Source: a bacterium
GTDB lineage: Bacteria; JAJRZV01
Assembly: GCA_024275095.1 (NCBI GenBank)
Contig: JAJRZV010000050.1
Span: forward strand, 1,603 to 65,602
Direction of reading: 5' to 3'
Length of the DNA stretch: 64,000 bases
Position numbers and translations under genes: made by a program. The notes beneath the pieces are model-generated. The model saw only the letters and a program-made list of their open reading frames with translations. It was not told the origin of the DNA and did not search any database. This document shows positions 45,895-64,000 of this stretch, in pieces; positions within the stretch are counted from its first letter, which is position 1, and the number at the start of each line of letters is the position of its first letter.

Positions 45895-46588
45895 AGCCAG
45901 CGTACCCAGTGGTGCCCTTTTTGTTGTGGCCACTCCTATAGGTAACCTTACGGATATATCTCAAAGAGCTCTTGATGTTTTGAAGAAGGTGGATTTTATC
46001 GTATGCGAAGACACGCGGGTGACCAGACGGCTGCTCACTTATTTTGGAATAAAAAACAAACCACTGTATTGTTTTCATCAGCATTCTTCTGTCCACAAGC
46101 TCTCAAAAATTGTGGAACGACTCGAAAGAGGTGAAAGGGGAGCGCTTGTTACTGATGCAGGAACTCCCGGAATTTCTGATCCCGGCAGGCCGCTTGTACG
46201 CGAGTGTATTCGAAGGAACATCGCCGTTCACCCTGTGCCTGGCCCTTCGGCAGTGATGGCTGCGCTTATGGCATCGGGAGCAGAGTGCGGTAGAGGATTC
46301 GTGTTTGCAGGATACCTTCCCTCCACACGGCGCAAAAAACGCAAAACTCTGGAAGCACTGGCCCGGGAGAAAAGGCCTGTTGTGGTTTTTGAGTCCCCAC
46401 ATCGTCTGTTAGAGACCCTGGATATGCTTGTGGACATTATGCCGGATAGAGAGATTTGCGTGTGTCGTGAGATGACAAAAATGTACGAAGAATTTATAAG
46501 AGGATGTCCCGAAAACGTGAAGACGCGTCTTCAGGGAACGGTACGTGGGGAATGCACCTTGGTGTTCATGGAAAAAAGGGGGGCATAG
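45887..46588 (+). CDS. rsmI: 16S rRNA 2'-O-methyltransferase RsmI
   Basis: 233 aa, tetrapyrrole-methylase fold, LFVVATPIGNLTDIS... Confidence 0.9.
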   Translation: MGEASVPSGALFVVATPIGNLTDISQRALDVLKKVDFIVCEDTRVTRRLLTYFGIKNKPLYCFHQHSSVHKLSKIVERLERGERGALVTDAGTPGISDPGRPLVRECIRRNIAVHPVPGPSAVMAALMASGAECGRGFVFAGYLPSTRRKKRKTLEALAREKRPVVVFESPHRLLETLDMLVDIMPDREICVCREMTKMYEEFIRGCPENVKTRLQGTVRGECTLVFMEKRGA

Positions 46589-46658
46589 AAAAAAATTCCC
46601 CATGGCGTGCGCTTGTGTCTCATGGTATATTTAATGCAACATTTTTCAGGAGGCTGGA

Positions 46659-48384: not shown

Positions 48385-49205
48385 GAATAGGCACTGCTGG
48401 AGTACCTCACTCAGCAAAGAAACGGGATTCGATCTCGGGAATAAAGCGCATTCACGAACTGGGCTTGGACGCCATGGAACTCGAGTTTGTTCGTGGAGTG
48501 AAAATGAAGGCCTCTGTCGCGGAAGAAGTACGCCGGATCGCGGATGAATACGACGTAAGGCTGACCGTTCACGCTCCTTATTATGTAAACCTGGCATCAG
48601 AGGAAAAGAACAAACGTGAAGCGAGCATCAAGCGCGTGGTGGACTCTGCCGAGGTTGGACAGCTCTGTGGAGCTGTATCTGTAACATTTCACGCTGGTTA
48701 CTACGGGAAAAATCCGCAGGCGGCAGGTGAGCTTATAAGGGAGGGGATCCTGCAAGTTCTTGAGCAACTATCAGGATGTTACATCACCATCAGCCCGGAG
48801 ACCACAGGGAAACCTTCTCAATACGGGACACTTGAAGAATTATTGAATATAAGTCGTGAACTGCGCGTTGGTCTGTGTGTTGATTTTTCCCATCTTTATG
48901 CACGGAGCCTGGGAGCCATTAACGGGAAGGATGCTTTTCGCAAGGTCATAAAACAGGTAAAAAAGGTTCTTGGCCCACGAGTAGTTAAAAATATGCATAT
49001 CCACGTTTCCGGAATGGAGTTTTCAAGCAAGGGAGAGGTCAGACACCTCAATTTTCGCGAGTCAAGTTTTGATTACGTGGGACTTGTTGACGCACTGGTA
49101 GAAGAGAAGGTGACAGGGATTGTTATCATTGAAAGTCCAAATCTGGAAGAAGACGCCCTGCTTTTTAAAGACCTTTATACAAAATTTTCAGGTGGCCGTG
49201 TCTGA
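48372..49205 (+). CDS. xylose-isomerase-like TIM-barrel protein (AP endonuclease family 2 / sugar-phosphate isomerase-like)
   Basis: 277 aa, IGTAGVP...ELGLDAMELEF... resembles the Nfo/TIM-barrel family; overlaps the ArsA-like gene by 13 nt. Confidence 0.55.
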   Translation: MDRLRIGTAGVPHSAKKRDSISGIKRIHELGLDAMELEFVRGVKMKASVAEEVRRIADEYDVRLTVHAPYYVNLASEEKNKREASIKRVVDSAEVGQLCGAVSVTFHAGYYGKNPQAAGELIREGILQVLEQLSGCYITISPETTGKPSQYGTLEELLNISRELRVGLCVDFSHLYARSLGAINGKDAFRKVIKQVKKVLGPRVVKNMHIHVSGMEFSSKGEVRHLNFRESSFDYVGLVDALVEEKVTGIVIIESPNLEEDALLFKDLYTKFSGGRV

Positions 49206-50544
49206 AAAGCCTTCACACAGCCTGAAAGAAGGGAATGTTTTTTTTACCGTATCAGCGGTTATTTTTCTTCTGCTGATTGTCCTTGATATTTCGCGGATTC
49301 CCGATATGCGGGCCAACGCCCATCGCGCCCTTGCCGATGTTGCGGTTTTAAGTATTTGCTTCGTGTATTTGTACGTCCGCCGTCCGCTTCCCGGATGGGC
49401 TGTGTTGTTGGTGGTACTGGTGGTCAAATTCATTTCATATACCGGGAGGCACCAGGTTTTGTCCGGACCACCTGTCCCTTATATGATGACTATGGAAGCG
49501 GCAACTCTCGTGCTTTTCTTCATTCTCAATAGAATTGACGATTTGATCATATTCGGTCTGCACCCTATACCTGTTCTTTTATCCGGCAGTACAGGCAATA
49601 TTTATGTTGTTTCACTCATGCTTCTTCGCTGCGGCTGGGCACTTTCTGCGAAACGCCAGCGTATAGCCGGCGTGCTTTCACATTTTTTTTACGGTGCAGG
49701 TGCCATAATGTCGCTGCCTGCATTTTTGATTACGCCGCTTGTTGTAAAGGGAAAAAGAAGAATTTTGTTAACACTGGGTATTACTGTTGTCGGAAGCGGC
49801 TTGATATTTTTTTCAGGCCATACCCCTCCGTGGGTGCTTCATTTAACCGGGTATTTTAAAGGAGAAACATGCGCATCCCTTGCGGGTGAAATATTTGGGT
49901 CGATGGGCTTCCGTTACTATCCTGCTATCGGGGCTCTTGCAGTGCTTGCAGCGCTTGTGGGTAACTCGTCACGCTCACGCGAACAGGATGTGCTGCCTCT
50001 TTACCTGATGTTTGCTCCGTTTATGGGCGGTGGACTTGAGGGTGTTAGCTTGTACGGTTTTTTTAGCCAGGAAAAAAGCCTTGTTTATTTCAGTTTCTCT
50101 TTCCTCTTGCTGCTGGGAGCAGGTGAGTGGCCGCAGGGGCTGTGTCACCCTCCGGTTCCGTATCTCATCATGATGTTTTTGCCACTGCTGGTTGTATATG
50201 TAATATCGCGGTTTCCCGGGTGTTTCCCGGGTCCGCGCGGGAAACAGTACGACGTGACATTTCAACTGGAAGGAATGTGCATTGAAAAAGCAGCGAAAAA
50301 GTACCTGAAAAGAATGATGGAGGAGGGCCTGGAAGGGAAAAGTATACCTGAGAGCGAGTATGAAGTGCTCCGGGAATTTGTGGAAACAGCAGATTTCAGA
50401 ACTCTCAGAAGCAGTTACCCGGTGCTTGATGGGAGCAAATCGGTGAAAGTGAAACTTTTTCAGAAGAAGCAACGTTTATATATAAAGGTGGAGGAGACAG
50501 ACGGTGGGGTTCAGGAGATTCCTGTTTTGAAAAAAAAGACTTGA
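49198..50544 (+). CDS. large polytopic membrane protein with C-terminal soluble domain, unknown function
   Basis: ORF 49120-50544; start placed at in-frame GTG 49198 overlapping the previous stop; many hydrophobic helices and a ~100-aa charged C-terminal domain. Confidence 0.45.
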   Translation: MSEKPSHSLKEGNVFFTVSAVIFLLLIVLDISRIPDMRANAHRALADVAVLSICFVYLYVRRPLPGWAVLLVVLVVKFISYTGRHQVLSGPPVPYMMTMEAATLVLFFILNRIDDLIIFGLHPIPVLLSGSTGNIYVVSLMLLRCGWALSAKRQRIAGVLSHFFYGAGAIMSLPAFLITPLVVKGKRRILLTLGITVVGSGLIFFSGHTPPWVLHLTGYFKGETCASLAGEIFGSMGFRYYPAIGALAVLAALVGNSSRSREQDVLPLYLMFAPFMGGGLEGVSLYGFFSQEKSLVYFSFSFLLLLGAGEWPQGLCHPPVPYLIMMFLPLLVVYVISRFPGCFPGPRGKQYDVTFQLEGMCIEKAAKKYLKRMMEEGLEGKSIPESEYEVLREFVETADFRTLRSSYPVLDGSKSVKVKLFQKKQRLYIKVEETDGGVQEIPVLKKKT

Positions 50545-50616
50545 CAGGGAGGGTGTTGATAAATATTAGAATGTGTATATGTGTTTTGTGTGAAAACATA
50601 CCTTAGGGGGTGAAGC

Positions 50617-51720
50617 ATGAGAAAAGTAAGTATTTTCATGGCGGTTGCCATGGTGCTGGTAATGGGTTGCGAAAAACTGGCAAAGGTAAAACAGGAAAAT
50701 GCCACACCCGTGGCAACTGTTCAGGGCATTGTAACAGATGAATTCCAGTCTCCCATTGCAAATGCCAATGTGAAAATTTTGATAGAGGGAGTGTGGAGAG
50801 AGGGGTATGTGACCGACGAGCAGGGTGTGTTTGTTATTCCTGATATTCCAGCCGGATCTGTCTACACTGTGGAAATTGATGCTTCGGGTTATTTCACTGT
50901 ACAGTTCTCCGTGAACGTGCCCCTTCCTTCCAATTTCTTCCCCACAGGCAATCAGGTCTTGGACCTGGGTAACATCATTCTTTTCCATGACAATGGAGGG
51001 TTGAAAGGGTGTTTTACCATCCAGTTGCCCAATGCGACCAATCCGTGGCCTGCAACAAATGCAACCGTTGTACTTACGGTTAATCAGCTTGGTTCTAACA
51101 GCGTGGTCATCACCGGCATTCAGGCAGATGCAAACGGGTGTTTTGACATTGCTCCTACATCCGGAAGGTTACCGGCATCCAGTTTTGGGAATGTAACGGT
51201 CAATATTCTTGCAGTGAAGCAACAGGAGTACGTTGTTGGAACAACCGGTAGTGTAACAGTGCCGTATTCCTGGACGCTCAACAACCTCCCTCTGACTCCC
51301 GATCTGACAACCTACCTGGGATACAATACCATGACGCAAAACTGTGCTTACGCAGGAAATCCGATTATTGTTAACCTCACCCAGAATTTTGACCGCTGCA
51401 ACCCCATTGATGGATCGTGCCTCAAGAATTCCTCCGCGAACAATTCCGGAACCGGAATTACCGATAACAAGGTGATAAGGCTGAACGTAAAGTTTGACCA
51501 GGTGATGGATATGAGCACTTCTCCTAACTTCAGTTGCGATGGATGCGCAGGAGTTGTCACGTGGGGCTGGTACTGGTCGAACGATTTTGAAGGATACTTT
51601 CTCATTGAATTCGTCGCAGGCTCTGATGACTCGGGCCAGGCATATAAGATTACAGCCAATGGCAGCGCTGCTAACTACTGTGGCAACCTCTTGCAGACAT
51701 ACAACGGCGTTTTTAAATGA
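50617..51720 (+). CDS. lipoprotein with carboxypeptidase-regulatory-like domain, unknown function
   Basis: 367 aa, MRKVSIFMAVAMVLVMGC lipobox; ...VKILIEGVWREGYVTDEQGVFVIPDIPAGSVYTVEIDASGYF... transthyretin-like domain. Confidence 0.5.
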   Translation: MRKVSIFMAVAMVLVMGCEKLAKVKQENATPVATVQGIVTDEFQSPIANANVKILIEGVWREGYVTDEQGVFVIPDIPAGSVYTVEIDASGYFTVQFSVNVPLPSNFFPTGNQVLDLGNIILFHDNGGLKGCFTIQLPNATNPWPATNATVVLTVNQLGSNSVVITGIQADANGCFDIAPTSGRLPASSFGNVTVNILAVKQQEYVVGTTGSVTVPYSWTLNNLPLTPDLTTYLGYNTMTQNCAYAGNPIIVNLTQNFDRCNPIDGSCLKNSSANNSGTGITDNKVIRLNVKFDQVMDMSTSPNFSCDGCAGVVTWGWYWSNDFEGYFLIEFVAGSDDSGQAYKITANGSAANYCGNLLQTYNGVFK

Positions 51721-51738
51721 GACGGACCCAGTGCTGTC

Positions 51739-52863
51739 GTGAAAGCGCCTAAGCTGATTCCTGTAGTGATTGTTTTTGCGCTGGTGGGAGGATTGCCTCC
51801 CACCAGTTTTTCTGCATGGGCAAAAACGAAGAAGCCCAGATCTAAGGTCAGATATGTTGTGGTGGATGGAGAGAGGTGGAGTGTTGCTGTTAAAAACAGG
51901 GTTTTTAAGGTAAGGGTTGAGGGGCCTGCCCGTGTAGAGGTGCGTGTGAGAGCCCTTGCATCCCGTAGGAAGATGAAGAACAGGCCGTTTAACGTGAAGC
52001 TTGCGACACCTGAAAAGCGGATGAATTTAAACGTACCCGTTTTGGAAGTACCCGCGGGTATTCGTTATGCAGGTTTGAAGCGTTCTGTTCCAACACGCGC
52101 TATTTCCCTTATAAAGGACGTTGATATACCCGCCGGAATGCATGTTATCTCGCTGGTCCCGGAACGGACATGTCTTGTACAGGTAAAGGTCAGAAAGGTA
52201 CCTGCTCGCAAGAGAGAAGCACCGTCAGTGACTGCAGAAAAGAAAGGTTCTTTTCTCAACGTCAAAGCAGGCGCAGGCCCGTTATATTTTTCCCAAACAG
52301 GCTTCACATCTCCGGGCTTTAACCTGTGGGGCCAGGTGTATCTCCGTTCATTTTCTCCCCGGTTACAACTGGGAGGAACCATTGAGTACATGTTTTATCA
52401 GGCCGCGTACTTTTACCAGGACCCCGCCACAGTATCTTTTTATCCTCGCACTGCAGTGGTCAACGAGAGTCGAATAACGTTTTCTGCCACGGGTGATGTG
52501 TCACTTGTACGGTCTTCCACGTTTAAATTTTCACTTGGTGGAGGATATACAGGAGATTATTTCCTGAACAATTTTTCGAGAATTAATTTTCAAGGCATTG
52601 TTGCCCGGGGGAGGGTATTTCTGAATGTGAGTCCCACATGGATATTTAACACGGGCGCATCTGTGGCATTTCGTCTTGGAGGTACATCCTACACGCCTGC
52701 ATTTGAAGGTTTACCGCGCCTGCGTGTACGTGTTCCTCTTGTACTGAGCATTCCTCTTCGTTGGAACAATGTGAACATGCGGGTGGGTTATCGTTTTGAG
52801 TATCTGGATTTTGAATACAGTAGTCGGTTCTACAATGTGTTGATGCTGGCCCTGGCCATTTAG
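51739..52863 (+). CDS. exported (possibly outer-membrane) protein, unknown function
   Basis: 374 aa, signal peptide MKAPKLIPVVIVFALVGG; C-terminal half rich in alternating aromatic/Gly beta-strand-like segments. Confidence 0.4.
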   Translation: MKAPKLIPVVIVFALVGGLPPTSFSAWAKTKKPRSKVRYVVVDGERWSVAVKNRVFKVRVEGPARVEVRVRALASRRKMKNRPFNVKLATPEKRMNLNVPVLEVPAGIRYAGLKRSVPTRAISLIKDVDIPAGMHVISLVPERTCLVQVKVRKVPARKREAPSVTAEKKGSFLNVKAGAGPLYFSQTGFTSPGFNLWGQVYLRSFSPRLQLGGTIEYMFYQAAYFYQDPATVSFYPRTAVVNESRITFSATGDVSLVRSSTFKFSLGGGYTGDYFLNNFSRINFQGIVARGRVFLNVSPTWIFNTGASVAFRLGGTSYTPAFEGLPRLRVRVPLVLSIPLRWNNVNMRVGYRFEYLDFEYSSRFYNVLMLALAI

Positions 52864-52931: not shown

Positions 52932-54425
52932 TTAGAGAATTGCAAGTACCCCTTCTGCAGCGTGATACCCTGCAGCCATAGCGGTGAGCATGGGGTTGAC
53001 TCCCGTGGGATAGGGAAAAATGCTGGTATCAGCAACAAATATTCTTTCACTGTAACGGAGTGACAGATCAGGTCTCACCGGATAACGCTCGGGGTTCTCT
53101 CCCGCACAGCATGTGCCCTGTGGATGGGCGGAGTATATGAATCCCTTCCCTTTTCTGAAAGAGATCGTATGTTCGTTTATTTCTTTTTCTCGTCTGTAAC
53201 GAATACCACCAGATGCGAGGATTACCACTTCCTTAGCACCTGAACGCAGCAATCCCCGAGCACATATAGCCACACCTCTGACAATACCTGTTTCGTCATC
53301 CGGAGCGAGATTGTAGAAAGGAAAGGGCCGATCGGCCCAGTGCGTGATAAAGCCCGAATGTGAATCGTATCGCTGAACAATAAACATGCTCATGTGACGG
53401 TACCTTTTCATGAGCTGCAGGTGTTCGGCGGGAGTGCCGGGTAATGCCACAGAGGTTGTTACCGGTAGCAGAAACATGCTTTCTATAACACATCCTGTTT
53501 CTTCAAAGAAGCTGTCGCAGTAGCCCTGCATTGGTATTCCGTCAAATCCATCCACAGTTTCTTCATGAATTCCAAATACAATGGCTGTGGGGTGTGTATA
53601 AAATCCTTTTCCTATACGCCCGTGTGGGTCTGGATGATCTGACATAAAAAGCAGCAAAGGGGTAAAGAGAGCTCCACATGAGATAACAACGGTACGGGCG
53701 GAGATGTGAAAGTAGGATATAGGAGAACCGTACTGGTCAATGAGTTGGCCTTTCACGTGGACGCGGCCATTCCTTTCTTTTACTTCTGTAGCTTTTGCAC
53801 CACAAAAGACTGTCAGGCCATTTTTCAACCCCTCAGGTATAAAGGTCATATCTGTTGACCTTTTCTTAAATGTAGGGCATCCGGTAATGCATGTGCCGCA
53901 ACCGTCACATCCAGGAGCATTTCTGCGCATGAGCTCGGGGGTGCCACCTGCTGCTTTCATGGCTTCCATGAAAATTTCACCGTTGCGATTGAGCATGTTC
54001 TCCGGTACTGGTCCTACTTTAAGTAGCTGTTCAATATCATCGTAATATTCGTCGAGTTTTTTCTCGGCCCAGCCGAGTCCTGCTTTGATCCATTTTTTTC
54101 GATGCTTTTGCGGCATCCTGAGAGCGCACGCCTGGTTGATGCGGGATGCTCCTCCTAAGGTCCGGCCCATAAGTACGGGTATGGGGGGATCGCCCATTGC
54201 TGCTGTAAGTCCGCCATCCCGGTAAAAGTGTATAAGAGCAAATGCTTCATCTCGTCCGTGGTATGTATATGAATGGTGCCAGCCTTCCTCCAGGAGGTAC
54301 ACTTTTTTACCAGCCATGGCCACCCGATAGGCACACGCTGCTCCTCCTGGTCCTGACCCAATTATTACTGTATCAGGTGTGGTATCAATAAAGGGGTGTT
54401 TGATAGTAAATGAGTCAAGAATCAC
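52932..54425 (-). CDS. GMC-family FAD-dependent oxidoreductase
   Basis: 497 aa, VIIGSGPGGAACAYRVAMAGKKVYLLEEG dinucleotide fold, GMC-like C-terminus. Confidence 0.8.
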   Translation of the reverse strand: MILDSFTIKHPFIDTTPDTVIIGSGPGGAACAYRVAMAGKKVYLLEEGWHHSYTYHGRDEAFALIHFYRDGGLTAAMGDPPIPVLMGRTLGGASRINQACALRMPQKHRKKWIKAGLGWAEKKLDEYYDDIEQLLKVGPVPENMLNRNGEIFMEAMKAAGGTPELMRRNAPGCDGCGTCITGCPTFKKRSTDMTFIPEGLKNGLTVFCGAKATEVKERNGRVHVKGQLIDQYGSPISYFHISARTVVISCGALFTPLLLFMSDHPDPHGRIGKGFYTHPTAIVFGIHEETVDGFDGIPMQGYCDSFFEETGCVIESMFLLPVTTSVALPGTPAEHLQLMKRYRHMSMFIVQRYDSHSGFITHWADRPFPFYNLAPDDETGIVRGVAICARGLLRSGAKEVVILASGGIRYRREKEINEHTISFRKGKGFIYSAHPQGTCCAGENPERYPVRPDLSLRYSERIFVADTSIFPYPTGVNPMLTAMAAGYHAAEGVLAIL

Positions 54426-54437
54426 AGTAAGTTTTTA

Positions 54438-55583
54438 TTACACCAATTTCCCCAGAATATCCATAAATTCGGAAATTGTGGTGCTGTGTTTGTCAAATTT
54501 AAACATTGACTGCAGCCGGTTCATGATCCCGTCCGCTGAAATAAAGTCGGCAATAAGTGTTACTTTCGCAAGCGAGAGAGAGGAGACGACCTTTCTTATG
54601 CGAAAACCTGCTTCTATTTCAGCATGAAATTCTGATGCAAACGCTGTTGTTACAGAACGCAGGTCACTTTGACCTCTGTGAAAAACGCGCATGAGTTCAC
54701 AAGCGAGAATTTCTGCGGATTTCATCCCGAACGATATGCCGCCGCCGGTGGTGGTTTTGACAAGTCCCGCCGCCTCTCCTGCAAGGGCAATGCGCCCTTT
54801 CGCAGCAAGGGGAGAAAGTCCCTGATTGATACGTCTTTTGAGAGGGCGAAAGTTTTTCTCGTTTCCGTTTATGTTGTGGCGCCTCAGGAATTCTTTAAAT
54901 ACTGCAAGAGGGGCATTGCCGGGTGTGAGTATACCTGTGCGGTATTGTGATTTTTTTTCAGGGATGATCCAGCCAAATCCCGACCCGAGTAATGATGGAG
55001 CATAATATACAAGCGTGTATTCGTCCTTCCATAAGCCCGGTAGTATCTGGTGAAACCCTGTGAATTGAACAGGTGGAGGCTTGAGCCCTGAACGCACTGC
55101 GAGCGTATTATCTGAGCCTGTAGCAAGCACTACAAAACGAGCCTTTATCAATTTCTGGCGCTCCTGATGGCGATATGTAATGTACACACAATGCTTGTTC
55201 TCAAGAACTCCTTCTGTACGCGCCTCTGTAACGATTTTTGCTCCATGGCACAGCGCACGCTGTTCTAAGTGATGATTGAAGCCTTCTCTGTCGATGATTA
55301 CACCTGCGGAATGGCTGATATCAACAAAGTATTCTTTCCCATTTTCCAGAAGCACCTTTACGCCGCCCATTTTTTTTCGTATTAAATGGGCGGGAATGTC
55401 GTACTCGTGTACGGTATTGAGGCTGATGACGCCTGCACATGCGACATCGGAACTCACACTCTTTTTTCGTTCAATTACACATACTTCCAGACCCTTTTCT
55501 GCCAGCAGTCCTGCAAGGTGAAGTCCGGTTGGGCCTGCTCCGATAATGACAACATCATAAAGTGACGAAGGAACTGTAACCAT
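54438..55583 (-). CDS. geranylgeranyl-reductase-family FAD-dependent oxidoreductase
   Basis: Internal ATG 55583 (GGAGG SD): MVTVPSSLYDVVIIGAGPTGLHLAGLLAEKGLEVCVIE..., 381 aa. Confidence 0.75.
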   Translation of the reverse strand: MVTVPSSLYDVVIIGAGPTGLHLAGLLAEKGLEVCVIERKKSVSSDVACAGVISLNTVHEYDIPAHLIRKKMGGVKVLLENGKEYFVDISHSAGVIIDREGFNHHLEQRALCHGAKIVTEARTEGVLENKHCVYITYRHQERQKLIKARFVVLATGSDNTLAVRSGLKPPPVQFTGFHQILPGLWKDEYTLVYYAPSLLGSGFGWIIPEKKSQYRTGILTPGNAPLAVFKEFLRRHNINGNEKNFRPLKRRINQGLSPLAAKGRIALAGEAAGLVKTTTGGGISFGMKSAEILACELMRVFHRGQSDLRSVTTAFASEFHAEIEAGFRIRKVVSSLSLAKVTLIADFISADGIMNRLQSMFKFDKHSTTISEFMDILGKLV

Positions 55584-56109
55584 TGAGTATAACCTCCGCT
55601 GCTTGTTCAAAATTTTCACAAATATGGTCAAATACTTCACGAGCATTCTTCTCATCCGGAGTTTTGGGACCTGTTTTCACAAGGATTGTTGTAACTCCTG
55701 CCCTCTTTCCTGCGAGTCCGTCTTCGATGCGGTCGCCAATCATAAAGGAATTTCGAGGGTCAGCGCCTGCATCTTTTAACGCTTTTTCCACCAGCAAAGG
55801 AGAAGGTTTGCGACACCTGCACCCCTCATCGGGAGTGTGGGGACAGAAGTAAAAGCGGTCTATGGTGATCCTGTACTTGGACAGAAGCATGCTCAATGCT
55901 TCATTGAAACAGTGCATCTCTTTTTCTGTATAAATGCCGCGACCGATCCCCGACTGATTGGTCACTACTGTAAAACGAAATCCTGCTCTTTGCAACAAAA
56001 TTAATCCTTTTATAACTCCGGGTAAAACTTGAAGTTCTTCTACCCTGTACGTGAACCCCGTATCTTTGTTAATCGTGCCGTCTCTGTCGAGGATAACAAG
56101 CTTCTTCAT
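55555..56109 (-). CDS. gmhB: D-glycero-D-manno-heptose-1,7-bisphosphate phosphatase (HAD-IIIA)
   Basis: 184 aa, ILDRDGTIN...VVTNQSGIGRG...CxC zinc site (CPHTPDEGCRCRKP). Confidence 0.75.
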   Translation of the reverse strand: MKKLVILDRDGTINKDTGFTYRVEELQVLPGVIKGLILLQRAGFRFTVVTNQSGIGRGIYTEKEMHCFNEALSMLLSKYRITIDRFYFCPHTPDEGCRCRKPSPLLVEKALKDAGADPRNSFMIGDRIEDGLAGKRAGVTTILVKTGPKTPDEKNAREVFDHICENFEQAAEVILNGYSSFVTL

Positions 56110-56711
56110 GTGGATTCCTCTATGTGTTCGTCAATGTAACGGCACAGTGCATGTATGAGGAATAGATGGGCTTCCTGTACAAGCGCCGTTTCTTCCGAGG
56201 GCACGCGAATGATATGCAGACCCCTTGGACATCGCGTGCGCTCTGGTTGAAAACTGTGACCGGTAAAAAGTGCGGTTTTCATTTGAAGTTTTCCTGCTTC
56301 TTCCAGTGCCATCAGTATGTTGGGGCTTCTACCAGAGGCGGAAAAAGCAATAAGCATATCCTCTGGATTACCCAGTGCTTTTATCTGAACGGCAAATATT
56401 TGTTCATAACTTTTATCATTAGCAACTGCCGTGATTATCGCGGGGTCTGTGGAAAGGGCTATGCATGGAACGTGTTGCCTTTTCCTTTGAAATCTCCAGA
56501 CAAGCTCTGACGCAAGGTGAGATGCCTGAGCAGCGCTGCCTCCATTTCCACACGTGAGAATTTTCCGGCCTTTGAGAATTGTCTCGAGCACAGCATTGCA
56601 TAGTGTTGAGAAATCTTCTTCTATGCAGGAAAGCTGTTGAATTACGTTTATGTGATTGTTTATCAGGTGCGTCAATTCAAGATTTTTCATTTTTATTTTC
56701 TTTCGTGTCAT
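56106..56711 (-). CDS. gmhA: phosphoheptose isomerase (SIS domain)
   Basis: 201 aa, ...ILTCGNGGSAAQASHLASEL...; ATGA overlaps on both sides. Confidence 0.85.
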   Translation of the reverse strand: MTRKKIKMKNLELTHLINNHINVIQQLSCIEEDFSTLCNAVLETILKGRKILTCGNGGSAAQASHLASELVWRFQRKRQHVPCIALSTDPAIITAVANDKSYEQIFAVQIKALGNPEDMLIAFSASGRSPNILMALEEAGKLQMKTALFTGHSFQPERTRCPRGLHIIRVPSEETALVQEAHLFLIHALCRYIDEHIEEST

Positions 56712-59470
56712 TTAAAGTAAAAATCCACAATCGGCCTTAATGCTTCTACAGTACATAAATTATGATGGCATTTTACCTCAGCTGCCTTTTCTCCTGCCAT
56801 GTTTATTGCGCGGGCAAAGCTGGCTCCCCGGGGAAGCTGTACTTTTGCGCTCTGGAGGCCTTCGGCAAATCCGGGGAAGAGTATCCGGAGCCTGAAAGCA
56901 TTATTTGTGGGCATGAGTGATGTGGCGATCCCATCGCCGTACACGGAAACAAACCCGTTTTCTTTCTCTGGTGCTGAATACATACCGAGTAATTTTTCGT
57001 ATGCAGGTTCTCCGTTAAAGGCTATTGCGGCTTTCCATGCCGCTACATGATCGAATGTCTGACGGGGCACGATGCGAAGGGTGCGCGTGTAGGTTCCGGA
57101 ACTCGAGGCATAAAATGTGGGCACGGTGAGAAGGCGGCACTTTTCCAGGCTCACGTTTCTCAGGATTACCGCTTCTATACTTCCGTCTTCCTCGTAATGC
57201 CAGGCCTGAATGCCCCGGTTGAGGATCAGCACGTTTCCATCTGCATTTCCAAAGGCAACCCATTCTGATGACGGCCAGAAGGTGGGGTTGAATATTTTTT
57301 GGGACACTCGCTTGACCTGTCCAAAAGGAGCTGAAAACCACGCCTCGTCCACAGGTGATTGTACAGATAGCTGGAGCGTGACCGTTGTCCCTTCATAGGC
57401 CCGGCCCGAAACTTCCAGGTCCAGGTATTTCTGGTAAGCATAAAAATGATATTCAACCGTTACACCAAGGTCCTGATACTCGATTTTTACTGTAATGCGG
57501 CTTTTTCCTGCCTTGACCGTTATATTTTGCTGTGCTTCTGAGGGTTTCTTTGAGAGCTGAAATGTGCAGCCTTCCATCTCGTGCCCGAATTCCCAAGGTC
57601 CTCCATCATCCTTGTAAGAGGCGGGATAGAACGAGCTGTCACCAAGATACTCATGACCTTCAGAGTCTTCAAGTGACCTGAGGGCCCAGAAAGGCTCGGA
57701 GGTGAATTCGGCTTTCAGGTAAGGGGTGGATACGCGGATTTCGTTATATGAGGCTGAGGTGGAAGGAGAACCATTACGGTAGTAGGTGATGGTGATGGGA
57801 GAGGGTACAGTGGTTGCAAGAAGTTTGACTTTTTTATAACCATACGCAGGGACGTCAAGTACATCAGCTTCGTATATATTGGCAAATGTGCCGCTCGTGG
57901 TTTTTACTGAGTAACGGTAATCTGCTGGTACGGTAACAGAAGCCCCGTTTACGTAAAATGTGGCAGCGGTGAATTGTGACAGTTCCTGACCCTGGGAATA
58001 CGTGATTAACTGAGCATGTATTGAGGAAGTAACTCCCGCGGGATTAAACACGACCGCTTCGTTTCCCACAGGTGAAAGTTCTATCCATCCGCTGGTGGCA
58101 AGGCGCGAAAGAAAGTGACGGGCTGTTTGGGAAGCTAAGGAGTTCAGGTTTTCCAGCCAGGGGAGTTGCTCGGTTTCAAACACAGGGTCCGGACTTGTGC
58201 CTGTAATAAAATCGTGGTGATTCGTAAAGGAGTTTTTCCACCACAAATCCTTTATTTCTTCGGCGCGGTCTTCACGTGAAGCCGCTCCGAAAAAGATCGC
58301 CTCTGTTCTCAATGCCTCCATGGTCAGGAGAAGGTAAAGGTTTTCACGCGCCATGTCCTTGATTTCCGGCCTTGAGGCGTAAAACCCCATAAAGTATGGA
58401 TTGAGATCTGCTGTCATTACCGGGATCTCATCCCTGTGTTCCCACACGAGCTCCCCGTAATCCTGAAAAGAGGCAAGCACAACATAGGTTCCTGTTGAGG
58501 GGTACCGGTACTCGTTCCACCATTTTACGTACAGGTCGAGTCCTTTTTTGGGCATTTCAAAATCACATCCTATGGGAATAAATATGTAGGGCGTGGGTGA
58601 TAGGGGTTGCATGAGATTGATAAGGTGTTGCATTTCTTCGAGTACCAGTTTTTTGTTGGTGGAGCCGGGCGTGAATACGTTGTTTACCACTGATATTGGT
58701 ACCCCGCTGTCAATGCTTCCACCGAGGCAGTAGAGATTGTAAGGCATCCAGTGTGCGACGACCTCTCCACCCATGGGACCACGCCACAGAAAATCTGCAG
58801 AACCTGAATTTTTCAGGATCCATGCGGTGGAATATGGAACGGGGTCAAGGGACTCAAGTCCCATTACCTGCTGGATAGCCTCGTCCAGTTCGGAAGTGGT
58901 ACCGTCTATTCGCGCGAAGGCGACTGATCTGTAACCCATGTAGGAAAGAATATCCGGCAGGGTTGGGGTATGGCCGAATGAATCGGGGAGCCACGCTGCG
59001 GATATGTTTACCTTTTCTATGTGTTCTGCAAGCCACTGCATTCCCATTTCGTAGTCCATGAGGAGGGACTCACCGGAAGGAAGCAGTGTATCTGGAGATG
59101 TAAATCCTCCTCCTATTATGCGGAATTTGCCTCTCGCAACAGCACTTTTAAGTACGTCCCGGTATTCCGGGTGGTCTTCGTAAAACTTTTTCAAGAAGGC
59201 AAGAATGCCTGCTGTGTAGACATAATTGCTACGCGTATTTACCAGCTCCAGTGCGCTGATATATATGTTTTCGACGACTTTTTCGTAGTAGTCTTCAAAT
59301 GTCATGAGCCAGTCCGGATCAAGATGAGCCGTCTGCTGGAGGATTACAACGGTTTTCGCACTGTCGGGAACGCCGAGCCGATGCCTGATTTCTTTTTCCT
59401 TGCCGGTGCCGCCGCATGATGAAAGGAGAAGGAGAGTCACGAGAGCTGAAATTCCATATTTGATTTTCAT
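56708..59470 (-). CDS. GH38-like alpha-mannosidase-family lipoprotein
   Basis: 920 aa, MKIKYGISALVTLLLLSSCGG lipobox; N-terminal QQTAHLDPDWL and WLPDSFGHT match GH38 metal-site and catalytic blocks. Confidence 0.7.
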   Translation of the reverse strand: MKIKYGISALVTLLLLSSCGGTGKEKEIRHRLGVPDSAKTVVILQQTAHLDPDWLMTFEDYYEKVVENIYISALELVNTRSNYVYTAGILAFLKKFYEDHPEYRDVLKSAVARGKFRIIGGGFTSPDTLLPSGESLLMDYEMGMQWLAEHIEKVNISAAWLPDSFGHTPTLPDILSYMGYRSVAFARIDGTTSELDEAIQQVMGLESLDPVPYSTAWILKNSGSADFLWRGPMGGEVVAHWMPYNLYCLGGSIDSGVPISVVNNVFTPGSTNKKLVLEEMQHLINLMQPLSPTPYIFIPIGCDFEMPKKGLDLYVKWWNEYRYPSTGTYVVLASFQDYGELVWEHRDEIPVMTADLNPYFMGFYASRPEIKDMARENLYLLLTMEALRTEAIFFGAASREDRAEEIKDLWWKNSFTNHHDFITGTSPDPVFETEQLPWLENLNSLASQTARHFLSRLATSGWIELSPVGNEAVVFNPAGVTSSIHAQLITYSQGQELSQFTAATFYVNGASVTVPADYRYSVKTTSGTFANIYEADVLDVPAYGYKKVKLLATTVPSPITITYYRNGSPSTSASYNEIRVSTPYLKAEFTSEPFWALRSLEDSEGHEYLGDSSFYPASYKDDGGPWEFGHEMEGCTFQLSKKPSEAQQNITVKAGKSRITVKIEYQDLGVTVEYHFYAYQKYLDLEVSGRAYEGTTVTLQLSVQSPVDEAWFSAPFGQVKRVSQKIFNPTFWPSSEWVAFGNADGNVLILNRGIQAWHYEEDGSIEAVILRNVSLEKCRLLTVPTFYASSSGTYTRTLRIVPRQTFDHVAAWKAAIAFNGEPAYEKLLGMYSAPEKENGFVSVYGDGIATSLMPTNNAFRLRILFPGFAEGLQSAKVQLPRGASFARAINMAGEKAAEVKCHHNLCTVEALRPIVDFYFK

Positions 59471-60396
59471 TTTCTCACGTACCTTCCATCACCTGTTTTT
59501 TCTATGAGCCCTTTTTTCAACAACCTTTGCATGTGTTTTTCTATCATCTGGGCCTCCATAAAGTTAATCATGAAATCATTTTTCATGCCGCTTTTACCGT
59601 ATATAGGGTGCAGGTTGAGCAGAGAATTCAAATCCATCGGCTTTTTCAAAAGTTCCAGAAACATTTCATCCCTTTGCTGAATGATATTTTGATACCGCCG
59701 AATTTCTTCTTCCAGTTCCTCTGCGTAAACCACCCATCTTTCGTGTGCGGTTACCACGTATCGTGGTGACATTTGGCGAATTTTTTCGAGGGTAGCAATG
59801 AAGTCTTCTATACTGGAACAGGCGTTTCCGTACCAGGGTCCGAAGTCGGTAAAGTCCACGTCGGCGGTGAAGAGCAGGTTGTATTCGGGAATGAGGAAAC
59901 CTGAATGACCTTTTGTGTGGCCGGGCAGATGTACGACCTGCAGAGTGACAGACCCAAGGGAGAAGGAGTCTCCGTCTTTGTAAAAGTTGTGAACTTCCGG
60001 CATGCGCCAGCTACGGCTTTCCAGACGCTTAAACCATTGAGTTTCGTAAGGTGACCCCAAAATTCCTGTATGTTGGGCCAATCCTTCAATACCGGAGAAA
60101 GCGAGCCGGTCTGGTGCCGGTGCATAGAATTCACAGTGAAAGAGCTGGTGATACCTGATATGGTCAGTGTGATAGTGGGTGAAAAGTAACATTTCAGTTC
60201 GAGAAGTAATTGCTTCTATTGCACTCCGGGATGAATGGGGGTCAACGACAACTACTCTGTCTTCTCCGATGACGAGTGTATTGCAGTAAGGGTACCGCCC
60301 CGTGTTGTCTCCCCTGAGTATGAGCAGACCGGGAGCCTCTATTTTCTCCTCCGATATAATGAGTTCACCATTGTGTACAGCGGTTCTGCACATCAT
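59467..60396 (-). CDS. metallo-beta-lactamase-fold hydrolase
   Basis: 309 aa, HYHTDHI motif; ATGA overlaps both neighbours. Confidence 0.7.
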   Translation of the reverse strand: MMCRTAVHNGELIISEEKIEAPGLLILRGDNTGRYPYCNTLVIGEDRVVVVDPHSSRSAIEAITSRTEMLLFTHYHTDHIRYHQLFHCEFYAPAPDRLAFSGIEGLAQHTGILGSPYETQWFKRLESRSWRMPEVHNFYKDGDSFSLGSVTLQVVHLPGHTKGHSGFLIPEYNLLFTADVDFTDFGPWYGNACSSIEDFIATLEKIRQMSPRYVVTAHERWVVYAEELEEEIRRYQNIIQQRDEMFLELLKKPMDLNSLLNLHPIYGKSGMKNDFMINFMEAQMIEKHMQRLLKKGLIEKTGDGRYVRK

Positions 60397-60914
60397 TTTT
60401 CTCCCGGGGTATAAGCAATCCCTCTCTTTTCAAGCGCTTCTTTCCACGCTTCAACCATTCTTTCATCTATATCTACAAAAATGATGTCCAGGTTTTCAGG
60501 TTGAACCTCGCTGATTGCTTTTATCATAGCATTTGCAGAGTCTGCATGTGAAACACCTCCAACACCTGTGCCCATTCCCGGGACGGCGATACTTTTGAAC
60601 CCGTTTTCGACCGCTACCCGCAACGCAGCCGCTGTGGCTTTCTTGATTTTTTCGGGTGTTGACGGCATGGCCGGTTGTTCCATCGTAGGGGCATGTATAA
60701 TACCTTTAAAGGGAAGTGACCCTGCTGTTGTCAGTACTGCCCGGCCTACAGGCGTGGGCCCCTTTTTCACGGCTTCCTCTTCTATCTCTTTGCCACCAGC
60801 GCGTTTTATTACCCCTGCAACACCACCCCCCATGTAACCCATGGAATTGGCGGCATTGACGATAACGTCCGCTTCAACCTCCAGGATGCTCCCTTTAACA
60901 ACCCTTATTTTCAT
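60393..60914 (-). CDS. macro-domain protein (ADP-ribose / O-acetyl-ADP-ribose processing)
   Basis: 173 aa, ...ADVIVNAANSMGYMGGGVAGVIKRAGG... canonical macro motifs. Confidence 0.85.
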   Translation of the reverse strand: MKIRVVKGSILEVEADVIVNAANSMGYMGGGVAGVIKRAGGKEIEEEAVKKGPTPVGRAVLTTAGSLPFKGIIHAPTMEQPAMPSTPEKIKKATAAALRVAVENGFKSIAVPGMGTGVGGVSHADSANAMIKAISEVQPENLDIIFVDIDERMVEAWKEALEKRGIAYTPGEK

Positions 60915-61921
60915 TGCACGGACCTCCTCAACTCTTCAAGTTTGTCACGGGCAGCGCCCGATTTCAAAACTTCTTCCATTAAGGCCAGGCCGTCTTCCAG
61001 CGAAGCGGCGAGACCTGCCGCCAGTGCAGCGAGACCTGCATTGATAAGGAAGAATTCTACGCGTGCAGGTTGCCCCTTTCCTGATAGTAAATCAATGATG
61101 ACCTCTGCACTTTCACCGGGAGATCGAACCCTCAGTTCTTCAATGTCGCGTTTTCTGAATCCGTACTCTTCGGGCCTGATGGTGTATTCGTTTTCAATGC
61201 CTTCGATGCGGGACCATACAGTTGACGGCCCTGTAACAGAGGCTTCGTCAAGGCCACTGCCGTGAACTATCAGGAGTCGCTGGAAAGGGATATGCGAAGC
61301 TGCTTTAAAGATTTTTTCTGCGGTGTAACCGTCGAATACCCCGATGAGCTGACAGGTAGCACCCGCTGGATTGGTCAGAGGGCCCAGTATGTTGAAGATC
61401 GTTCTTGTGCCGAGAGATCGTCTTACCGGCATGGCGTGCTTCATGGCAGGGTGATAAAGCGGGGCGAATAGAAATGTATATCTGTACTCGTTGAGCTGGC
61501 GCGCAGCTTCTTCCGGAGGATTTTCAATGGGAACACCGAGAGCTTCCAGTACATCCGCGCTGCCGGTGCGTGAAGACACTGACCGGTTCCCGTGTTTGGC
61601 CACCTTTGCTCCCGCTGCAGCCAGAGCTATGGACACGGCTGTGGATACGTTGAATGTTCCTGTGCCGTCTCCCCCTGTTCCACAGGTGTCGCATACTGTA
61701 AACTCGCCGGTGTCCACTTTAAGTGCTGCATTCCTCATTGCCATAGCTGCTCCCGCAATCTCATCCGGACTTTCCCCTTTCATTCGCAGGGCAGTGAGCA
61801 CAGCAGAGATTTTTGCCTCGTCCAGTTCTCCTGACATGATAGAGGAGAACAGGTCTCTGGATTCTGTGAAGGAAAGATTTTCTTTGTTAAAAAGTTTTTC
61901 AAGGATTTTTGAAAATTCCAT
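60911..61921 (-). CDS. trpD: anthranilate phosphoribosyltransferase
   Basis: 336 aa, DTCGTGGDGTGTFNVSTA...KHGNRSVSS TrpD signature. Confidence 0.9.
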   Translation of the reverse strand: MEFSKILEKLFNKENLSFTESRDLFSSIMSGELDEAKISAVLTALRMKGESPDEIAGAAMAMRNAALKVDTGEFTVCDTCGTGGDGTGTFNVSTAVSIALAAAGAKVAKHGNRSVSSRTGSADVLEALGVPIENPPEEAARQLNEYRYTFLFAPLYHPAMKHAMPVRRSLGTRTIFNILGPLTNPAGATCQLIGVFDGYTAEKIFKAASHIPFQRLLIVHGSGLDEASVTGPSTVWSRIEGIENEYTIRPEEYGFRKRDIEELRVRSPGESAEVIIDLLSGKGQPARVEFFLINAGLAALAAGLAASLEDGLALMEEVLKSGAARDKLEELRRSVQ

Positions 61922-61923
61922 CT

Positions 61924-63060
61924 TTATCGCTCCTGAAGATATTTGCGAATGCGCTTAAAACCTTCTTTTATTTTATCTTCAGAAACAGAATATGAAAAAC
62001 GTAGATGCCCTTCCGAAACTTCGCCGAAATCCACGCCGGGTGTCACTGCGACATGAGCTTTTTCCAGAAGTTCAAAAGCTCCTTCCAGGGAGCGGGGGAA
62101 AAGTTTTTTTACATTAACGAGAAAGTAGAAAGCTCCGCTTGGACGATATCTCACTTCAAACCCCGTATTGATCAACTCTTCGTACATGATGTCTCGACGT
62201 TTCATGTATTCATGTTTAACTTTTTCTACAAAATTTTTACCTTCTCTCAAAGCAACAATCCCTGCGTGCTGAACAAAGGCATTGGTGGAGATAAAAAAGT
62301 TTTGCTGCATTTTCTGGACGGCGTCGAGGTAGGGCCTGGGAACGATGAGGTAGCCCAATCTCCAGCCTGTCATGGCATAGGCCTTGGAAAATCCGTTGAC
62401 CACAAAGGCGTCTTCTGAAAAGCACAGGGCCGAAGTAACCTCGGTTCCGTAGTTGAGACCGTGATAGATCTCGTCCGAAATGATCGTGGGGCCGAGGTTG
62501 CAGATTTCCTTCAACACATCTTCCGGAATCACTGCTCCTGTTGGATTGGCCGGTGAGTTGATGATAATGGCACGCGTGCGAGGTGTAATATGTTTTTTGA
62601 GCAGCGAGGGGTTGGGTATATATCCTTCATCCTCTCGTAATGGTACACGCCGGATCTTCCCGCCCAGAAATCTGACAAAGTTGTGATAACATGGATATCC
62701 AGGATCGGTGATAATAACTTCTTCATTTTCATTGAGAAGGCAGCCGAATGCCAGCAACATGGCAGGTGATGTTCCAGGCGTGACCACCACACATTCAGGG
62801 TCCACATGGACACTGTAGGTGGTGGCATAATGGCGCGCAATTTCCTCCCTTAATTCCTGAATTCCCAAACTGTGAGTGTAACGTGTCTCACCTCTTTCTA
62901 CAGCTTCCCGTAATGCGATGACCACCTCTGAAGGTGTATCGAAGTCGGGTTCTCCCACTTCCATGTGGACAATATCCACCCCCTGTTTTTCCAGCTCCTG
63001 GGCTCTCTCGAGAACGTCCATCACTTTAAAAGTGGTCATATGCTTAAGATGGGCTCTCAT
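61924..63060 (-). CDS. class I/II PLP aminotransferase (aspartate/aromatic type)
   Basis: 378 aa, ...NSPANPTGAV... and SKAYAMTGWRLGY (PLP lysine region). Confidence 0.85.
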   Translation of the reverse strand: MRAHLKHMTTFKVMDVLERAQELEKQGVDIVHMEVGEPDFDTPSEVVIALREAVERGETRYTHSLGIQELREEIARHYATTYSVHVDPECVVVTPGTSPAMLLAFGCLLNENEEVIITDPGYPCYHNFVRFLGGKIRRVPLREDEGYIPNPSLLKKHITPRTRAIIINSPANPTGAVIPEDVLKEICNLGPTIISDEIYHGLNYGTEVTSALCFSEDAFVVNGFSKAYAMTGWRLGYLIVPRPYLDAVQKMQQNFFISTNAFVQHAGIVALREGKNFVEKVKHEYMKRRDIMYEELINTGFEVRYRPSGAFYFLVNVKKLFPRSLEGAFELLEKAHVAVTPGVDFGEVSEGHLRFSYSVSEDKIKEGFKRIRKYLQER

Positions 63061-63169
63061 GATTTCTGGCCTCCTTAAAGACTCTCATGTGCACGTTTTA
63101 CTATATTTTTATACTTTACTCTCGTCTGTGGCCGTAATATAAAAAGCACAATCTGGGGAGGAGGGACAA

Positions 63170-64000
63170 ATGATCAGTATGTGGGCTCTACTGGCATCTT
63201 CACTTCTTGTTGCCACTCCCTCGTTCAACGTGAACGGTGATGCGCGTTTGGCCGGGGGTTACATTTCTCATCCATCGGCTGTGGAACCTGCCGGTGGTGG
63301 AGAAGGGGATAAACGCTTTGTAGAAATGCGCGTAAGGGTTGATCCTGAAATACACTTTTCTTCTTCGCTCACGCTTCATGTATCAGCAGATATTGCTTCC
63401 AATATTCATTACGGAAGTACCGGTTTTAATTCTACAGGTGACAGTGTGAATTTTTATCTCCGCAGGGCTTATATCAAATGGCGTACTCCTGTGGGATTAC
63501 TGGAAATAGGGCGGATGCCCAATCACTGGGGACTTGGTGTTTTTGTTAACAGTGGAGACGGTTATGATACCCCTTTCGGAATAAAACGTTATGGTGACAC
63601 GGCAGACAGAATTGTCTTTGCAACCAAACCCCTCGGGCCGGAGTCGCACCTGATCGTGGCAATTGGTTACGATAAAGTATCGGAAGAAAGGATTATTAAC
63701 CCGCAGGATGACGCAGATGACTGGCTGGCCGTGCTTTTTTATAAAACACGCACGGTTGAAACGGGCACATATGCCGTCGTTCGTGTCCAGAACAGTACGC
63801 GCACAAAACTTTTTATCCCTGATTTTTTTGCGCGTGTACATTTGCCCGGCGAAGCTGTAGGTTTAAACACTTTGCGGTTCCTGAGATTTGAGACAGAGGC
63901 GGTTGTAATTATGGGGAGTACGCAAGCCGCTCCTTCGGTCAATGATGGTTTGATAAAAAGAGATGCGTTTATGGTTGGCGCTGCCGGGCGTTTTTCGGCA
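63170..64000 (+). CDS. exported protein, possibly outer-membrane porin-like; runs off the 3' end of the window
   Basis: Hand-translated (not in ORF track, no stop): GGGGAGGAGGG SD, MISMWALLASSLLVATPS signal peptide, ...LRRAYIKWRTPVGLLEIGRMPNHWGLGVFVNSGDGYDTPFG... Confidence 0.4.
   Translation, partial: MISMWALLASSLLVATPSFNVNGDARLAGGYISHPSAVEPAGGGEGDKRFVEMRVRVDPEIHFSSSLTLHVSADIASNIHYGSTGFNSTGDSVNFYLRRAYIKWRTPVGLLEIGRMPNHWGLGVFVNSGDGYDTPFGIKRYGDTADRIVFATKPLGPESHLIVAIGYDKVSEERIINPQDDADDWLAVLFYKTRTVETGTYAVVRVQNSTRTKLFIPDFFARVHLPGEAVGLNTLRFLRFETEAVVIMGSTQAAPSVNDGLIKRDAFMVGAAGRFSA

Follow-up and report, generated by a model that had tools for sequence, protein, structure and literature searches.

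Organization of the nine-gene locus

We analyzed a 64,000-nucleotide stretch of a bacterial contig (JAJRZV010000050.1 of GenBank assembly GCA_024275095.1, positions 1,603 to 65,602 of the forward strand), hereafter called the window, and consider here a string of nine genes on its minus strand. An original prediction, made from the sequence without database searches, had singled out these genes as a tightly packed set, and that description holds: nine minus-strand open reading frames (ORFs) run from 63060 to 52932 and encode, in order, proteins of 378, 336, 173, 309, 920, 201, 184, 405 (381 from Met25) and 497 aa. Pfam and NCBIfam comparisons confirm the family proposed for each of the nine, namely a pyridoxal phosphate (PLP)-dependent aminotransferase (AT), the anthranilate phosphoribosyltransferase TrpD, a macro domain protein (Macro), a metallo-beta-lactamase-fold hydrolase (MBL), a GH38 glycoside hydrolase predicted to be a lipoprotein, the heptose enzymes GmhA and GmhB, a geranylgeranyl-reductase-family flavoprotein (GGR) and a GMC-family FAD oxidoreductase (GMC).

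All eight junctions in the string are of 12 nt or less. The AT and TrpD genes are separated by 2 nt, as read from the sequence, and the next five consecutive junctions (TrpD to Macro, Macro to MBL, MBL to GH38, GH38 to GmhA and GmhA to GmhB) are 4-nt ATGA overlaps. The GmhB and GGR genes overlap by 29 nt if GGR starts at Met25 (55583), a start that is preceded by GGAGG and shared with a 381-aa NCBI-source protein (P0247), and by 101 nt if the longest ORF is taken. The final junction, from GGR to GMC, is the 12-nt gap that had been predicted before the last gene, with GTG as the GMC start codon. The earlier statement that all genes are joined by ATGA-type or short overlaps is thus right for the five ATGA junctions and the 29-nt overlap, and slightly overstated for the gaps of 2 and 12 nt.

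Upstream, the string is separated by a 109-bp intergenic region (63061-63169) from a divergent plus-strand gene of the TIGR04551 family that starts at 63170; this region presumably holds the promoters of both. Downstream, it meets a convergent plus-strand gene that ends at 52863. An AAGGAGG lies 7 nt 5' of the AT start. Consensus scans for internal promoter-like and terminator-like elements gave 14 matches against 16.8 in shuffled sequence and 20 against 15.0, respectively, neither of which is above expectation, and Rfam searches returned no match across the window at the gathering threshold or across the cluster at E <= 1, with neither a leader nor a riboswitch detected. We infer that the string is polycistronic and is probably read from the 63061-63169 region as a single transcript, with junctions tight enough to allow translational coupling. 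The part of the divergent neighbor that lies in the window (63170-64000, plus strand) encodes a signal-peptide protein with a partial TIGR04551 match (85 bits against a cutoff of 300) and continues past the window end.

The string separates into three blocks in relatives

All proteins of the window are singletons in a collection of 15 billion proteins, and relatives suitable for comparing gene order are consequently few: one locus, L005, and three contigs of the sample SRR27730023, L001, L004 and L086. In L005, the closer relative (TrpD 64% identical), the order AT-TrpD-Macro is kept with 4-nt overlaps; a fragment 5' of TrpD is 80% identical to the C-terminus of the window AT, and the gene after TrpD is 79% identical to the window Macro. 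L001 carries Macro-MBL-GH38 (72, 48 and 50% identical, respectively), followed by a different FAD gene of the NAD_binding_8 type and not by gmhA. L086 has a free-standing GmhA-GmhB-GGR-GMC operon (43, 52, 39 and 54% identical; overlaps of 4, 4 and 11 nt), with a divergent FGE-sulfatase gene on one side and a GGDEF regulator on the other. In L004, TrpD (55% identical) stands after a divergent HIT/cyclase/IleRS group and is joined by a 4-nt overlap to dnaX-recR-POR. The genes flanking these segments on L001, L004 and L086 have no counterpart elsewhere in the window. The three contigs have a GC content of 39-43% and tetranucleotide correlations of 0.96-0.97 among themselves, against 0.85 with the window, and they probably represent one genome.

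The original prediction took the genes for one translationally coupled unit and named separate placement in relatives as the sign that the coupling is only compact packing; on the three SRR27730023 contigs the genes do lie at separate loci with unrelated neighbors. Because the relatives keep AT-TrpD-Macro, Macro-MBL-GH38 and GmhA-GmhB-GGR-GMC separately, we interpret the nine-gene string as the lineage-specific joining of three independently conserved blocks and not as one pathway, a reading to which we assign a probability of about 0.72. Block A would consist of the aminotransferase, a genuine TrpD and the macro protein; block B of the same macro protein with the MBL hydrolase and the GH38 lipoprotein; and block C of GmhA, GmhB, GGR and GMC. 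Block C, at 39-54% identity, has kept its gene order but not its flanks, and this four-gene block is so far confined to this lineage.

A broader survey of the GH38 gene points the same way. A scan of GTDB genomes with the single GH38 sequence gave no match, whereas an alignment-based scan, in which each GTDB species was represented by one genome, found 248 relatives, and we compared the neighborhoods of the best 80 of these 248 loci (L006-L085), which show 28-40% identity and come mostly from metagenome-assembled genomes (MAGs) of Myxococcota/Polyangia, with a few from Binatia, Chloroflexota and Actinomycetota. Homologs of the other eight genes occur within 10 kb of GH38 in none of these 80 loci from other species. 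Three metagenomic GH38 contexts also have unrelated neighbors, and de novo clustering, in which high-GC spurious ORFs dominated the clusters, recovered no neighbor family in more than 12 of 82 loci. One of the three metagenomic contexts, on an ENA contig (L003, 8001-18820), has a GH38 homolog (33% identical) with an FAD gene of the amine-oxidase type at a distance of about 3 kb and a GMC-like gene at about 7 kb, the latter 30% identical to the window GMC and perhaps divided among several ORFs. It is the only such locus of 83, and this proximity is probably due to chance.

Tight packing is the normal state of this genome

We compared the junctions of the string with the 40 same-strand junctions found elsewhere in the 64-kb window by crude gene calls. 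The latter are of 12 nt or less in 27 cases and exactly -4 in seven, so that eight tight junctions out of eight are near expectation (0.68^8, or about 0.05), while ATGA overlaps, at five of the eight, are somewhat enriched over the background. Co-directional runs of 11 to at least 20 genes are present elsewhere in the window. The neighboring plus-strand string at 42934-52863, with 11 co-directional genes of unrelated functions, is as heterogeneous as the nine-gene string: its content includes fmt, rsmB, rpe, a tetrapyrrole-type methylase (TP_methylase), an alpha/beta hydrolase, an ArsA-like ATPase, an AP_endonuc_2 protein, a protein of no assigned family, a CarboxypepD_reg-domain protein and another unassigned one, with junctions of -50, -4, -8, +70, -8, -13, -86, +72 and +18. 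Co-directional, tightly packed and functionally unrelated genes are the normal state of this genome, and the packing of the nine genes exceeds chance only mildly.

Blocks A and B: an aminotransferase, TrpD, and a macro protein shared with a hydrolase and a GH38 lipoprotein

The first gene (61924-63060, minus strand) encodes a class I/II PLP aminotransferase of 378 aa (Pfam Aminotran_1_2, 194.5 bits), whose best NCBIfam model, PRK08960, is matched with 389.5 bits, under its cutoff of 554. TrpD catalyzes the second step of tryptophan synthesis. The product of the second gene (60911-61921, minus strand; 336 aa) is a true TrpD and not a member of the TrpD2 paralog family, a distinction that the original prediction had left to be checked: it scores 382.4 bits against a cutoff of 199 with TIGR01245, falls far under the cutoffs of the YbiB/TrpD2 models (65.8 against 185 for YbiB NF006005) and displays the GTGGDG and KHGNR motifs. 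The matches to its homologs are phylogenetically scattered, and the other taxonomic hints, among them the TIGR04551-family gene and a GH38 family centered on Myxococcota, are weak. A solitary gene for a TrpB2-like PLP enzyme lies at 39391-40752 on the minus strand of the window (696 bits with TIGR01415 and 765 bits with PRK12391), with no other trp gene nearby, which implies that this genome, as with its heptose genes, has its trp genes dispersed over several places. The suggestion that TrpD and the aminotransferase are passengers in the string is borne out.

The third gene (60393-60914, minus strand) links blocks A and B. Its product is a stand-alone macro domain protein of 173 aa (Pfam Macro, 114.7 bits) of the ADP-ribose-binding or ADP-ribose-derivative hydrolase type, close to equivalog level with the ADP-ribose-binding family NF001666 (236.3 bits against a cutoff of 246). 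The possibility that it belongs to a DarTG or other anti-phage system was considered and rejected: PADLOC gives only generic similarity to the macro domain of DarG (61.8 bits), with no DarT and no match for the other eight proteins, and a role in defense is excluded at this level.

The MBL hydrolase (59467-60396, minus strand; 309 aa; Pfam Lactamase_B, 37.8 bits) has an HYHTDH motif and matches PDB sequences 2xf4, 4ad9 (LACTB2) and 2zo4, as a glyoxalase II/LACTB2-like enzyme with a C-terminal extension. The last 90 or so residues, which Pfam leaves uncovered, align with the C-terminal region of LACTB2 (PDB 4ad9). There are two in-frame ATG codons, at 60396 and 60393. Since the protein collection lacks the 309-aa form, the source annotation probably uses another start.

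The fifth gene (56708-59470, minus strand) encodes a GH38-family glycoside hydrolase of 920 aa, identified by Pfam matches, motifs and fold. It matches Glyco_hydro_38N with 119.4 bits (cutoff 25), Alpha-mann_mid with 42.4 (cutoff 31.1) and GH38C, at the borderline, with 24.1 (cutoff 25). Its His/Asp, PDSFGH and HHD motifs are preserved, with H49/D51, D163 and H418-H419-D420 invariant in 27 homologs, as is the lipobox cysteine; by analogy with dGMII, we take the His and Asp residues to be the metal-binding His/Asp pair, the nucleophile Asp and the HHD element. An AlphaFold2 model (pLDDT 86) matches the GH38 mannosidases of S. pyogenes and E. faecalis along its entire length, with Foldseek TM scores of 0.74-0.76 over about 980 aligned columns to 2wyi and 5kbp. 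The N-terminus, MKIKYGISALVTLLLLSSC, has a lipobox read from the sequence, whose Cys19 is invariant across the family, and the protein is accordingly a predicted lipoprotein. Macro and MBL have no signal peptide, and since GH38 alone has a lipobox, block B would span two compartments, with MBL predicted to be cytoplasmic and GH38 an exported alpha-mannosidase-type lipoprotein.

Block C: divergent heptose enzymes

In the synthesis of nucleotide-activated heptose, GmhA and GmhB catalyze the first and third steps. The GmhA-like sedoheptulose-7-phosphate isomerase of block C (56106-56711, minus strand; 201 aa; SIS_2, 73.7 bits) has GmhA models as its best matches, each below its cutoff (169.9 against 276 for PRK13936 and 138.5 against 209.45 for TIGR00441). 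It aligns with the P. aeruginosa GmhA 1x92 (E = 8e-39) through the GNGGS, SxSGxSxN and QExHxxxIH segments. An identity as DiaA was rejected, as the GmhA models score higher (169.9 against 123.1) and the top PDB matches are GmhA proteins. The GmhB-like enzyme (55555-56109, minus strand; 184 aa) is a HAD-IIIA heptose-1,7-bisphosphate phosphatase with DRDGT and CPH...CRCRKP motifs. It too lies under the curated GmhB cutoffs (165.5 against 178 for PRK08942 and 125.8 against 149.6 for TIGR00213) and passes the HAD-IIIA and histidinol-phosphatase-domain models (137.4 against 84 for TIGR01656 and 109.3 against 44.6 for TIGR01662).

No gene for an HldE/HddA kinase, nucleotidyltransferase, HldD or heptosyltransferase is present among the cluster genes, as had been remarked, or among the annotated ORFs of the whole window. 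This was originally seen as an oddity. In E. coli, gmhA, gmhB, hldE and hldD occupy four separate loci, so that a cluster lacking hldE is no anomaly. The window further holds a cluster for lipopolysaccharide (LPS) and its sugar 3-deoxy-D-manno-oct-2-ulosonate (Kdo) at 25197-32894 on the plus strand, with KdsB, PyrG, KdsA, KdsC (TIGR01670, 171 bits against 107), an lpxL-like lipid A acyltransferase, a possible LptC, LptA, LptB and RpoN. By this cluster, the source organism is a diderm that makes Kdo-containing LPS, which gives heptose a conventional destination. Most simply, then, GmhA and GmhB would supply heptose to the LPS core.

In L086, a gene pair on the opposite strand (8166-10564, minus strand), about 2.5 kb downstream of the four-gene operon, encodes a short-chain dehydrogenase/reductase (SDR) and a Lar_N protein. 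The SDR was tried as a candidate HldD and proved to be HpnA-like, with 264 bits for TIGR03466, a model of hopanoid-associated sugar epimerases (cutoff 367), against 42.7 bits for heptose_epim.

Block C: two flavoproteins

GGR (54438-55583, minus strand; 381 aa from Met25) only just reaches the cutoff of the geranylgeranyl reductase model TIGR02032 (159.1 against 158.8), and its best PDB match is the Thermoplasma digeranylgeranylglycerophospholipid reductase 3oz2. Cys49, FxW and KTTTGGGI are invariant features. Scanning metagenomes with an alignment of GGR sequences recovered 80 loci (26-34% identity), none of which has a GMC or GmhB gene near the GGR homolog; a GmhA-like gene is found in two and a macro gene in four. 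Among 81 metagenomic loci (L087-L167) of the GGR subfamily closest to the window protein, 50 have a gene for a Bac_transf phosphoglycosyl transferase, against 0 of 86 unrelated control loci. In about 42 it directly adjoins GGR on the same strand, immediately upstream in about 30 and immediately downstream in about 12. Fourteen of these loci also have a BBP2_2 beta-barrel gene immediately downstream and a Poly_export/SLBB gene 1-8 kb further on. Examples of the GGR/Bac_transf pairing are L089 (2335-4195), L090 (585-3971) and L092 (around 8001).

This context suggests that the reductases of this subfamily may act on the bactoprenol carrier in exopolysaccharide (EPS) loci. Archaeal GGR paralogs saturate dolichol phosphate, and bacterial carriers have been described as fully unsaturated (PMC5088576). 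Given what these archaeal paralogs do and the adjacency of the subfamily to Bac_transf, a polyprenyl chain is a reasonable candidate substrate. For the window the connection is indirect, with no Bac_transf gene in it or in L086. Our literature search found no description of a GGR associated with PEP-CTERM or sugar transferase genes, nor of an association of GGR, GMC and GmhA.

GMC (52932-54425, minus strand; 497 aa; GMC_oxred_N, 123.2 bits; GMC_oxred_C, 43.4 bits) carries an iron-sulfur-type cysteine triad, Cys173-x5-Cys179-x3-Cys183, that is invariant in 40-50 homologs. The 3Fe-4S ligands of the alpha subunit of the B. cepacia FAD-dependent glucose dehydrogenase (FAD-GDH), Cys212, Cys218 and Cys222, have the same C-x5-C-x3-C spacing (PMC6719666). 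The AlphaFold2 model (pLDDT 95.9) is closest in fold to cholesterol oxidase, to the fructose dehydrogenase of Gluconobacter and to the B. cepacia GDH alpha subunit; the PDB entries 8jej, 8grj and 6a2u are its fold neighbors. The GMC family with this triad is large: at 50% identity it has 780 representatives (E <= 1e-30), and many members are extended at the N-terminus by 150-310 aa. Among the homologs inspected (P0279-P0427), a weak match to Gluconate_2-dh3 is seen in one and a fusion to an SDR/epimerase domain in one, and none appears to be characterized. The two flavoproteins would act on lipid or sugar substrates of the envelope, with a sugar or a lipid alcohol as the candidate substrate of GMC.

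Discussion

The composite reading of the string has several points against it. Five ATGA overlaps in a row exceed the background rate of the window (7 of 40), and, with nothing inside the string that stands out as a promoter or terminator, the nine genes are likely to be co-expressed, which could in itself have a function. The related contig sets number only three, all short or metagenomic; the assignment of L001, L004 and L086 to one genome comes from composition alone; and the L001 contig ends before Macro, so that its upstream side is out of view. Furthermore, GmhA and GmhB fall under the curated NCBIfam cutoffs in both the window and L086, which makes a role outside LPS possible.

Other readings have to be set against this one. 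The original prediction joined GH38 to GmhA/GmhB and the two flavoproteins, and Macro and MBL may be counted in as well, in one heptose/isoprenoid glycoconjugate system expressed as a single translationally coupled unit, and the contiguity of the genes, their ATGA overlaps and the lack of an evident internal promoter or terminator all accord with it; so do the GMC-like and amine-oxidase-type FAD genes within reach of the distant GH38 of L003, and the FAD enzyme that follows GH38 in L001. That FAD gene, however, is of a different family from both GGR and GMC. Moreover, the relative has GH38 and block C on separate contigs, each among unrelated neighbors, GmhA, GmhB, GGR, GMC, Macro and MBL genes are absent from all 80 GH38 loci of other species, and GH38 is exported while the others have no signal peptides. 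The split loci and the empty neighborhoods have already largely refuted this single system, and we regard it as very improbable. No better placed is a nucleotide or ADP-ribose salvage module, in which Macro would release ADP-ribose or ribose phosphates, MBL would act on a nucleotide or thioester, and TrpD, which depends on phosphoribosyl pyrophosphate (PRPP), would be supplied with the products. Macro does adjoin TrpD in the window and L005, and MBL in the window and L001, always with an overlap, and MBL resembles LACTB2-type enzymes; yet the TrpD of L004 is not beside a macro gene, macro genes also turn up near unrelated GGR loci (4 of 80), as expected of a common small gene, and we know of no chemistry that links the Macro, MBL and TrpD families.

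A more serious contender, which we still consider unlikely, would make block C a self-contained envelope pathway of an uncharacterized kind and the other five genes unrelated passengers. GmhA and GmhB would then make heptose phosphate or free heptose, the iron-sulfur GMC would oxidize that sugar or a polyprenol alcohol, and GGR would saturate isoprene units of the polyprenyl carrier, to yield a glycolipid or glycan that bears heptose and is built on a partly saturated carrier. The persistence of the four-gene order and its tight overlaps between the window and L086, at 39-54% identity and with both flanks wholly different, speaks for such a pathway. The Bac_transf genes in 50 of 81 loci of the GGR subfamily (0 of 86 in the control), about 42 of them adjoining on the same strand, the invariant 3Fe-4S-type triad of a GMC whose nearest folds include sugar dehydrogenases and cholesterol oxidase, and the divergence of GmhA and GmhB, under equivalog cutoffs in both genomes, are likewise in keeping with it. 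Against this, the block occurs in two genomes only; GMC or GmhB is near GGR homologs in 0 of 80 loci and a GmhA-like gene in two of 80; neither the window nor L086 has a Bac_transf gene; the overlaps in these genomes also join plainly unrelated genes, such as TrpD and dnaX; the kinase (HldE/HddA) needed for the known substrate of GmhB is absent from the block; and the LPS cluster of the window explains GmhA and GmhB conventionally. The fuller version of the idea, an undescribed bacterial envelope pathway that couples heptose from divergent GmhA/GmhB, a polyprenyl carrier partly saturated by GGR and a 3Fe-4S GMC that oxidizes the carrier alcohol or the sugar, is in our view a long shot. Were it true, bacteria would possess dolichol-like, partly saturated glycan carriers, and the GGR subfamily near phosphoglycosyl transferases in EPS loci would serve this function across many phyla.

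The joining of three blocks thus remains our preferred reading, and under it the nine-gene unit as such matters little, each gene being a known family member in ordinary operon form. The more general lesson is that ATGA overlaps and shared direction in a compact genome are no proof of a shared pathway, and that a few relatives can split such a cluster into real modules. The leads that remain are the four-gene block of heptose enzymes, GGR and an iron-sulfur GMC, and the GGR subfamily tied to polyprenyl-phosphate sugar transferases. Should this subfamily prove to saturate bactoprenol, the textbook view of bacterial glycan carriers as fully unsaturated (PMC5088576) would have to be qualified.

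Comparison with known systems

The heptose enzymes find their nearest parallel in the ADP-L-glycero-D-manno-heptose pathway to the LPS inner core (GmhA, HldE, GmhB and HldD). As in that pathway, there are GmhA-like and GmhB-like enzymes in which the catalytic and Zn-loop motifs are kept, and the organism has Kdo/LPS genes. The locus differs in that HldE, HldD and a heptosyltransferase are missing both from the cluster and from the ORFs annotated in the window, in that both enzymes score under equivalog cutoffs, and in that they share an operon with two flavoproteins, an arrangement of which we know no example among LPS heptose genes. The GH38 protein has the full-length fold (TM 0.74-0.76) and the invariant metal and nucleophile motifs of bacterial GH38 alpha-mannosidases (S. 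pyogenes SpGH38, PDB 2wyh; E. faecalis, PDB 5kbp). Unlike these, it is a predicted lipoprotein, and its widespread family, mainly from Myxococcota MAGs, has neither a conserved neighborhood nor a characterized member, the closest characterized proteins being only about 15% identical.

GGR belongs with the geranylgeranyl reductases, such as the archaeal digeranylgeranylglycerophospholipid reductase (PDB 3oz2), the archaeal dolichol omega-reductases and the mycobacterial MenJ, by the TIGR02032 cutoff that it reaches and its conserved Cys, FxW and GxGI motifs; it is set apart as part of a bacterial subfamily whose relatives stand beside polyprenyl-phosphate sugar transferases in EPS loci, while the window gene itself is flanked by GmhB and GMC. 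GMC resembles the catalytic subunits of the 3Fe-4S FAD dehydrogenases (B. cepacia FAD-GDH alpha, PDB 6a2u; Gluconobacter fructose dehydrogenase, PDB 7w2j) in its GMC fold, in the Cys-x5-Cys-x3-Cys at the equivalent loop and in having them among its top structural neighbors. In contrast to them, to which it is 15-17% identical, it has no Tat or signal sequence, and a fourth cysteine, C176, creates a ferredoxin-like CxxCxxCxxxCP motif. The partners of such dehydrogenases, a Tat hitchhiker gamma subunit and a multiheme cytochrome c, do not adjoin GMC in the window or in L086.

As a whole, the string is most akin to the mixed-function polycistronic strings of compact genomes, which are co-directional, use 4-nt start/stop overlaps, place functionally unrelated genes side by side and are reshuffled among relatives, as seen also at 42934-52863 in the window and in the TrpD-dnaX-recR string of the relative. 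What distinguishes it from these is that its three sub-blocks are each kept in at least one relative, which argues against a random assortment of single genes.

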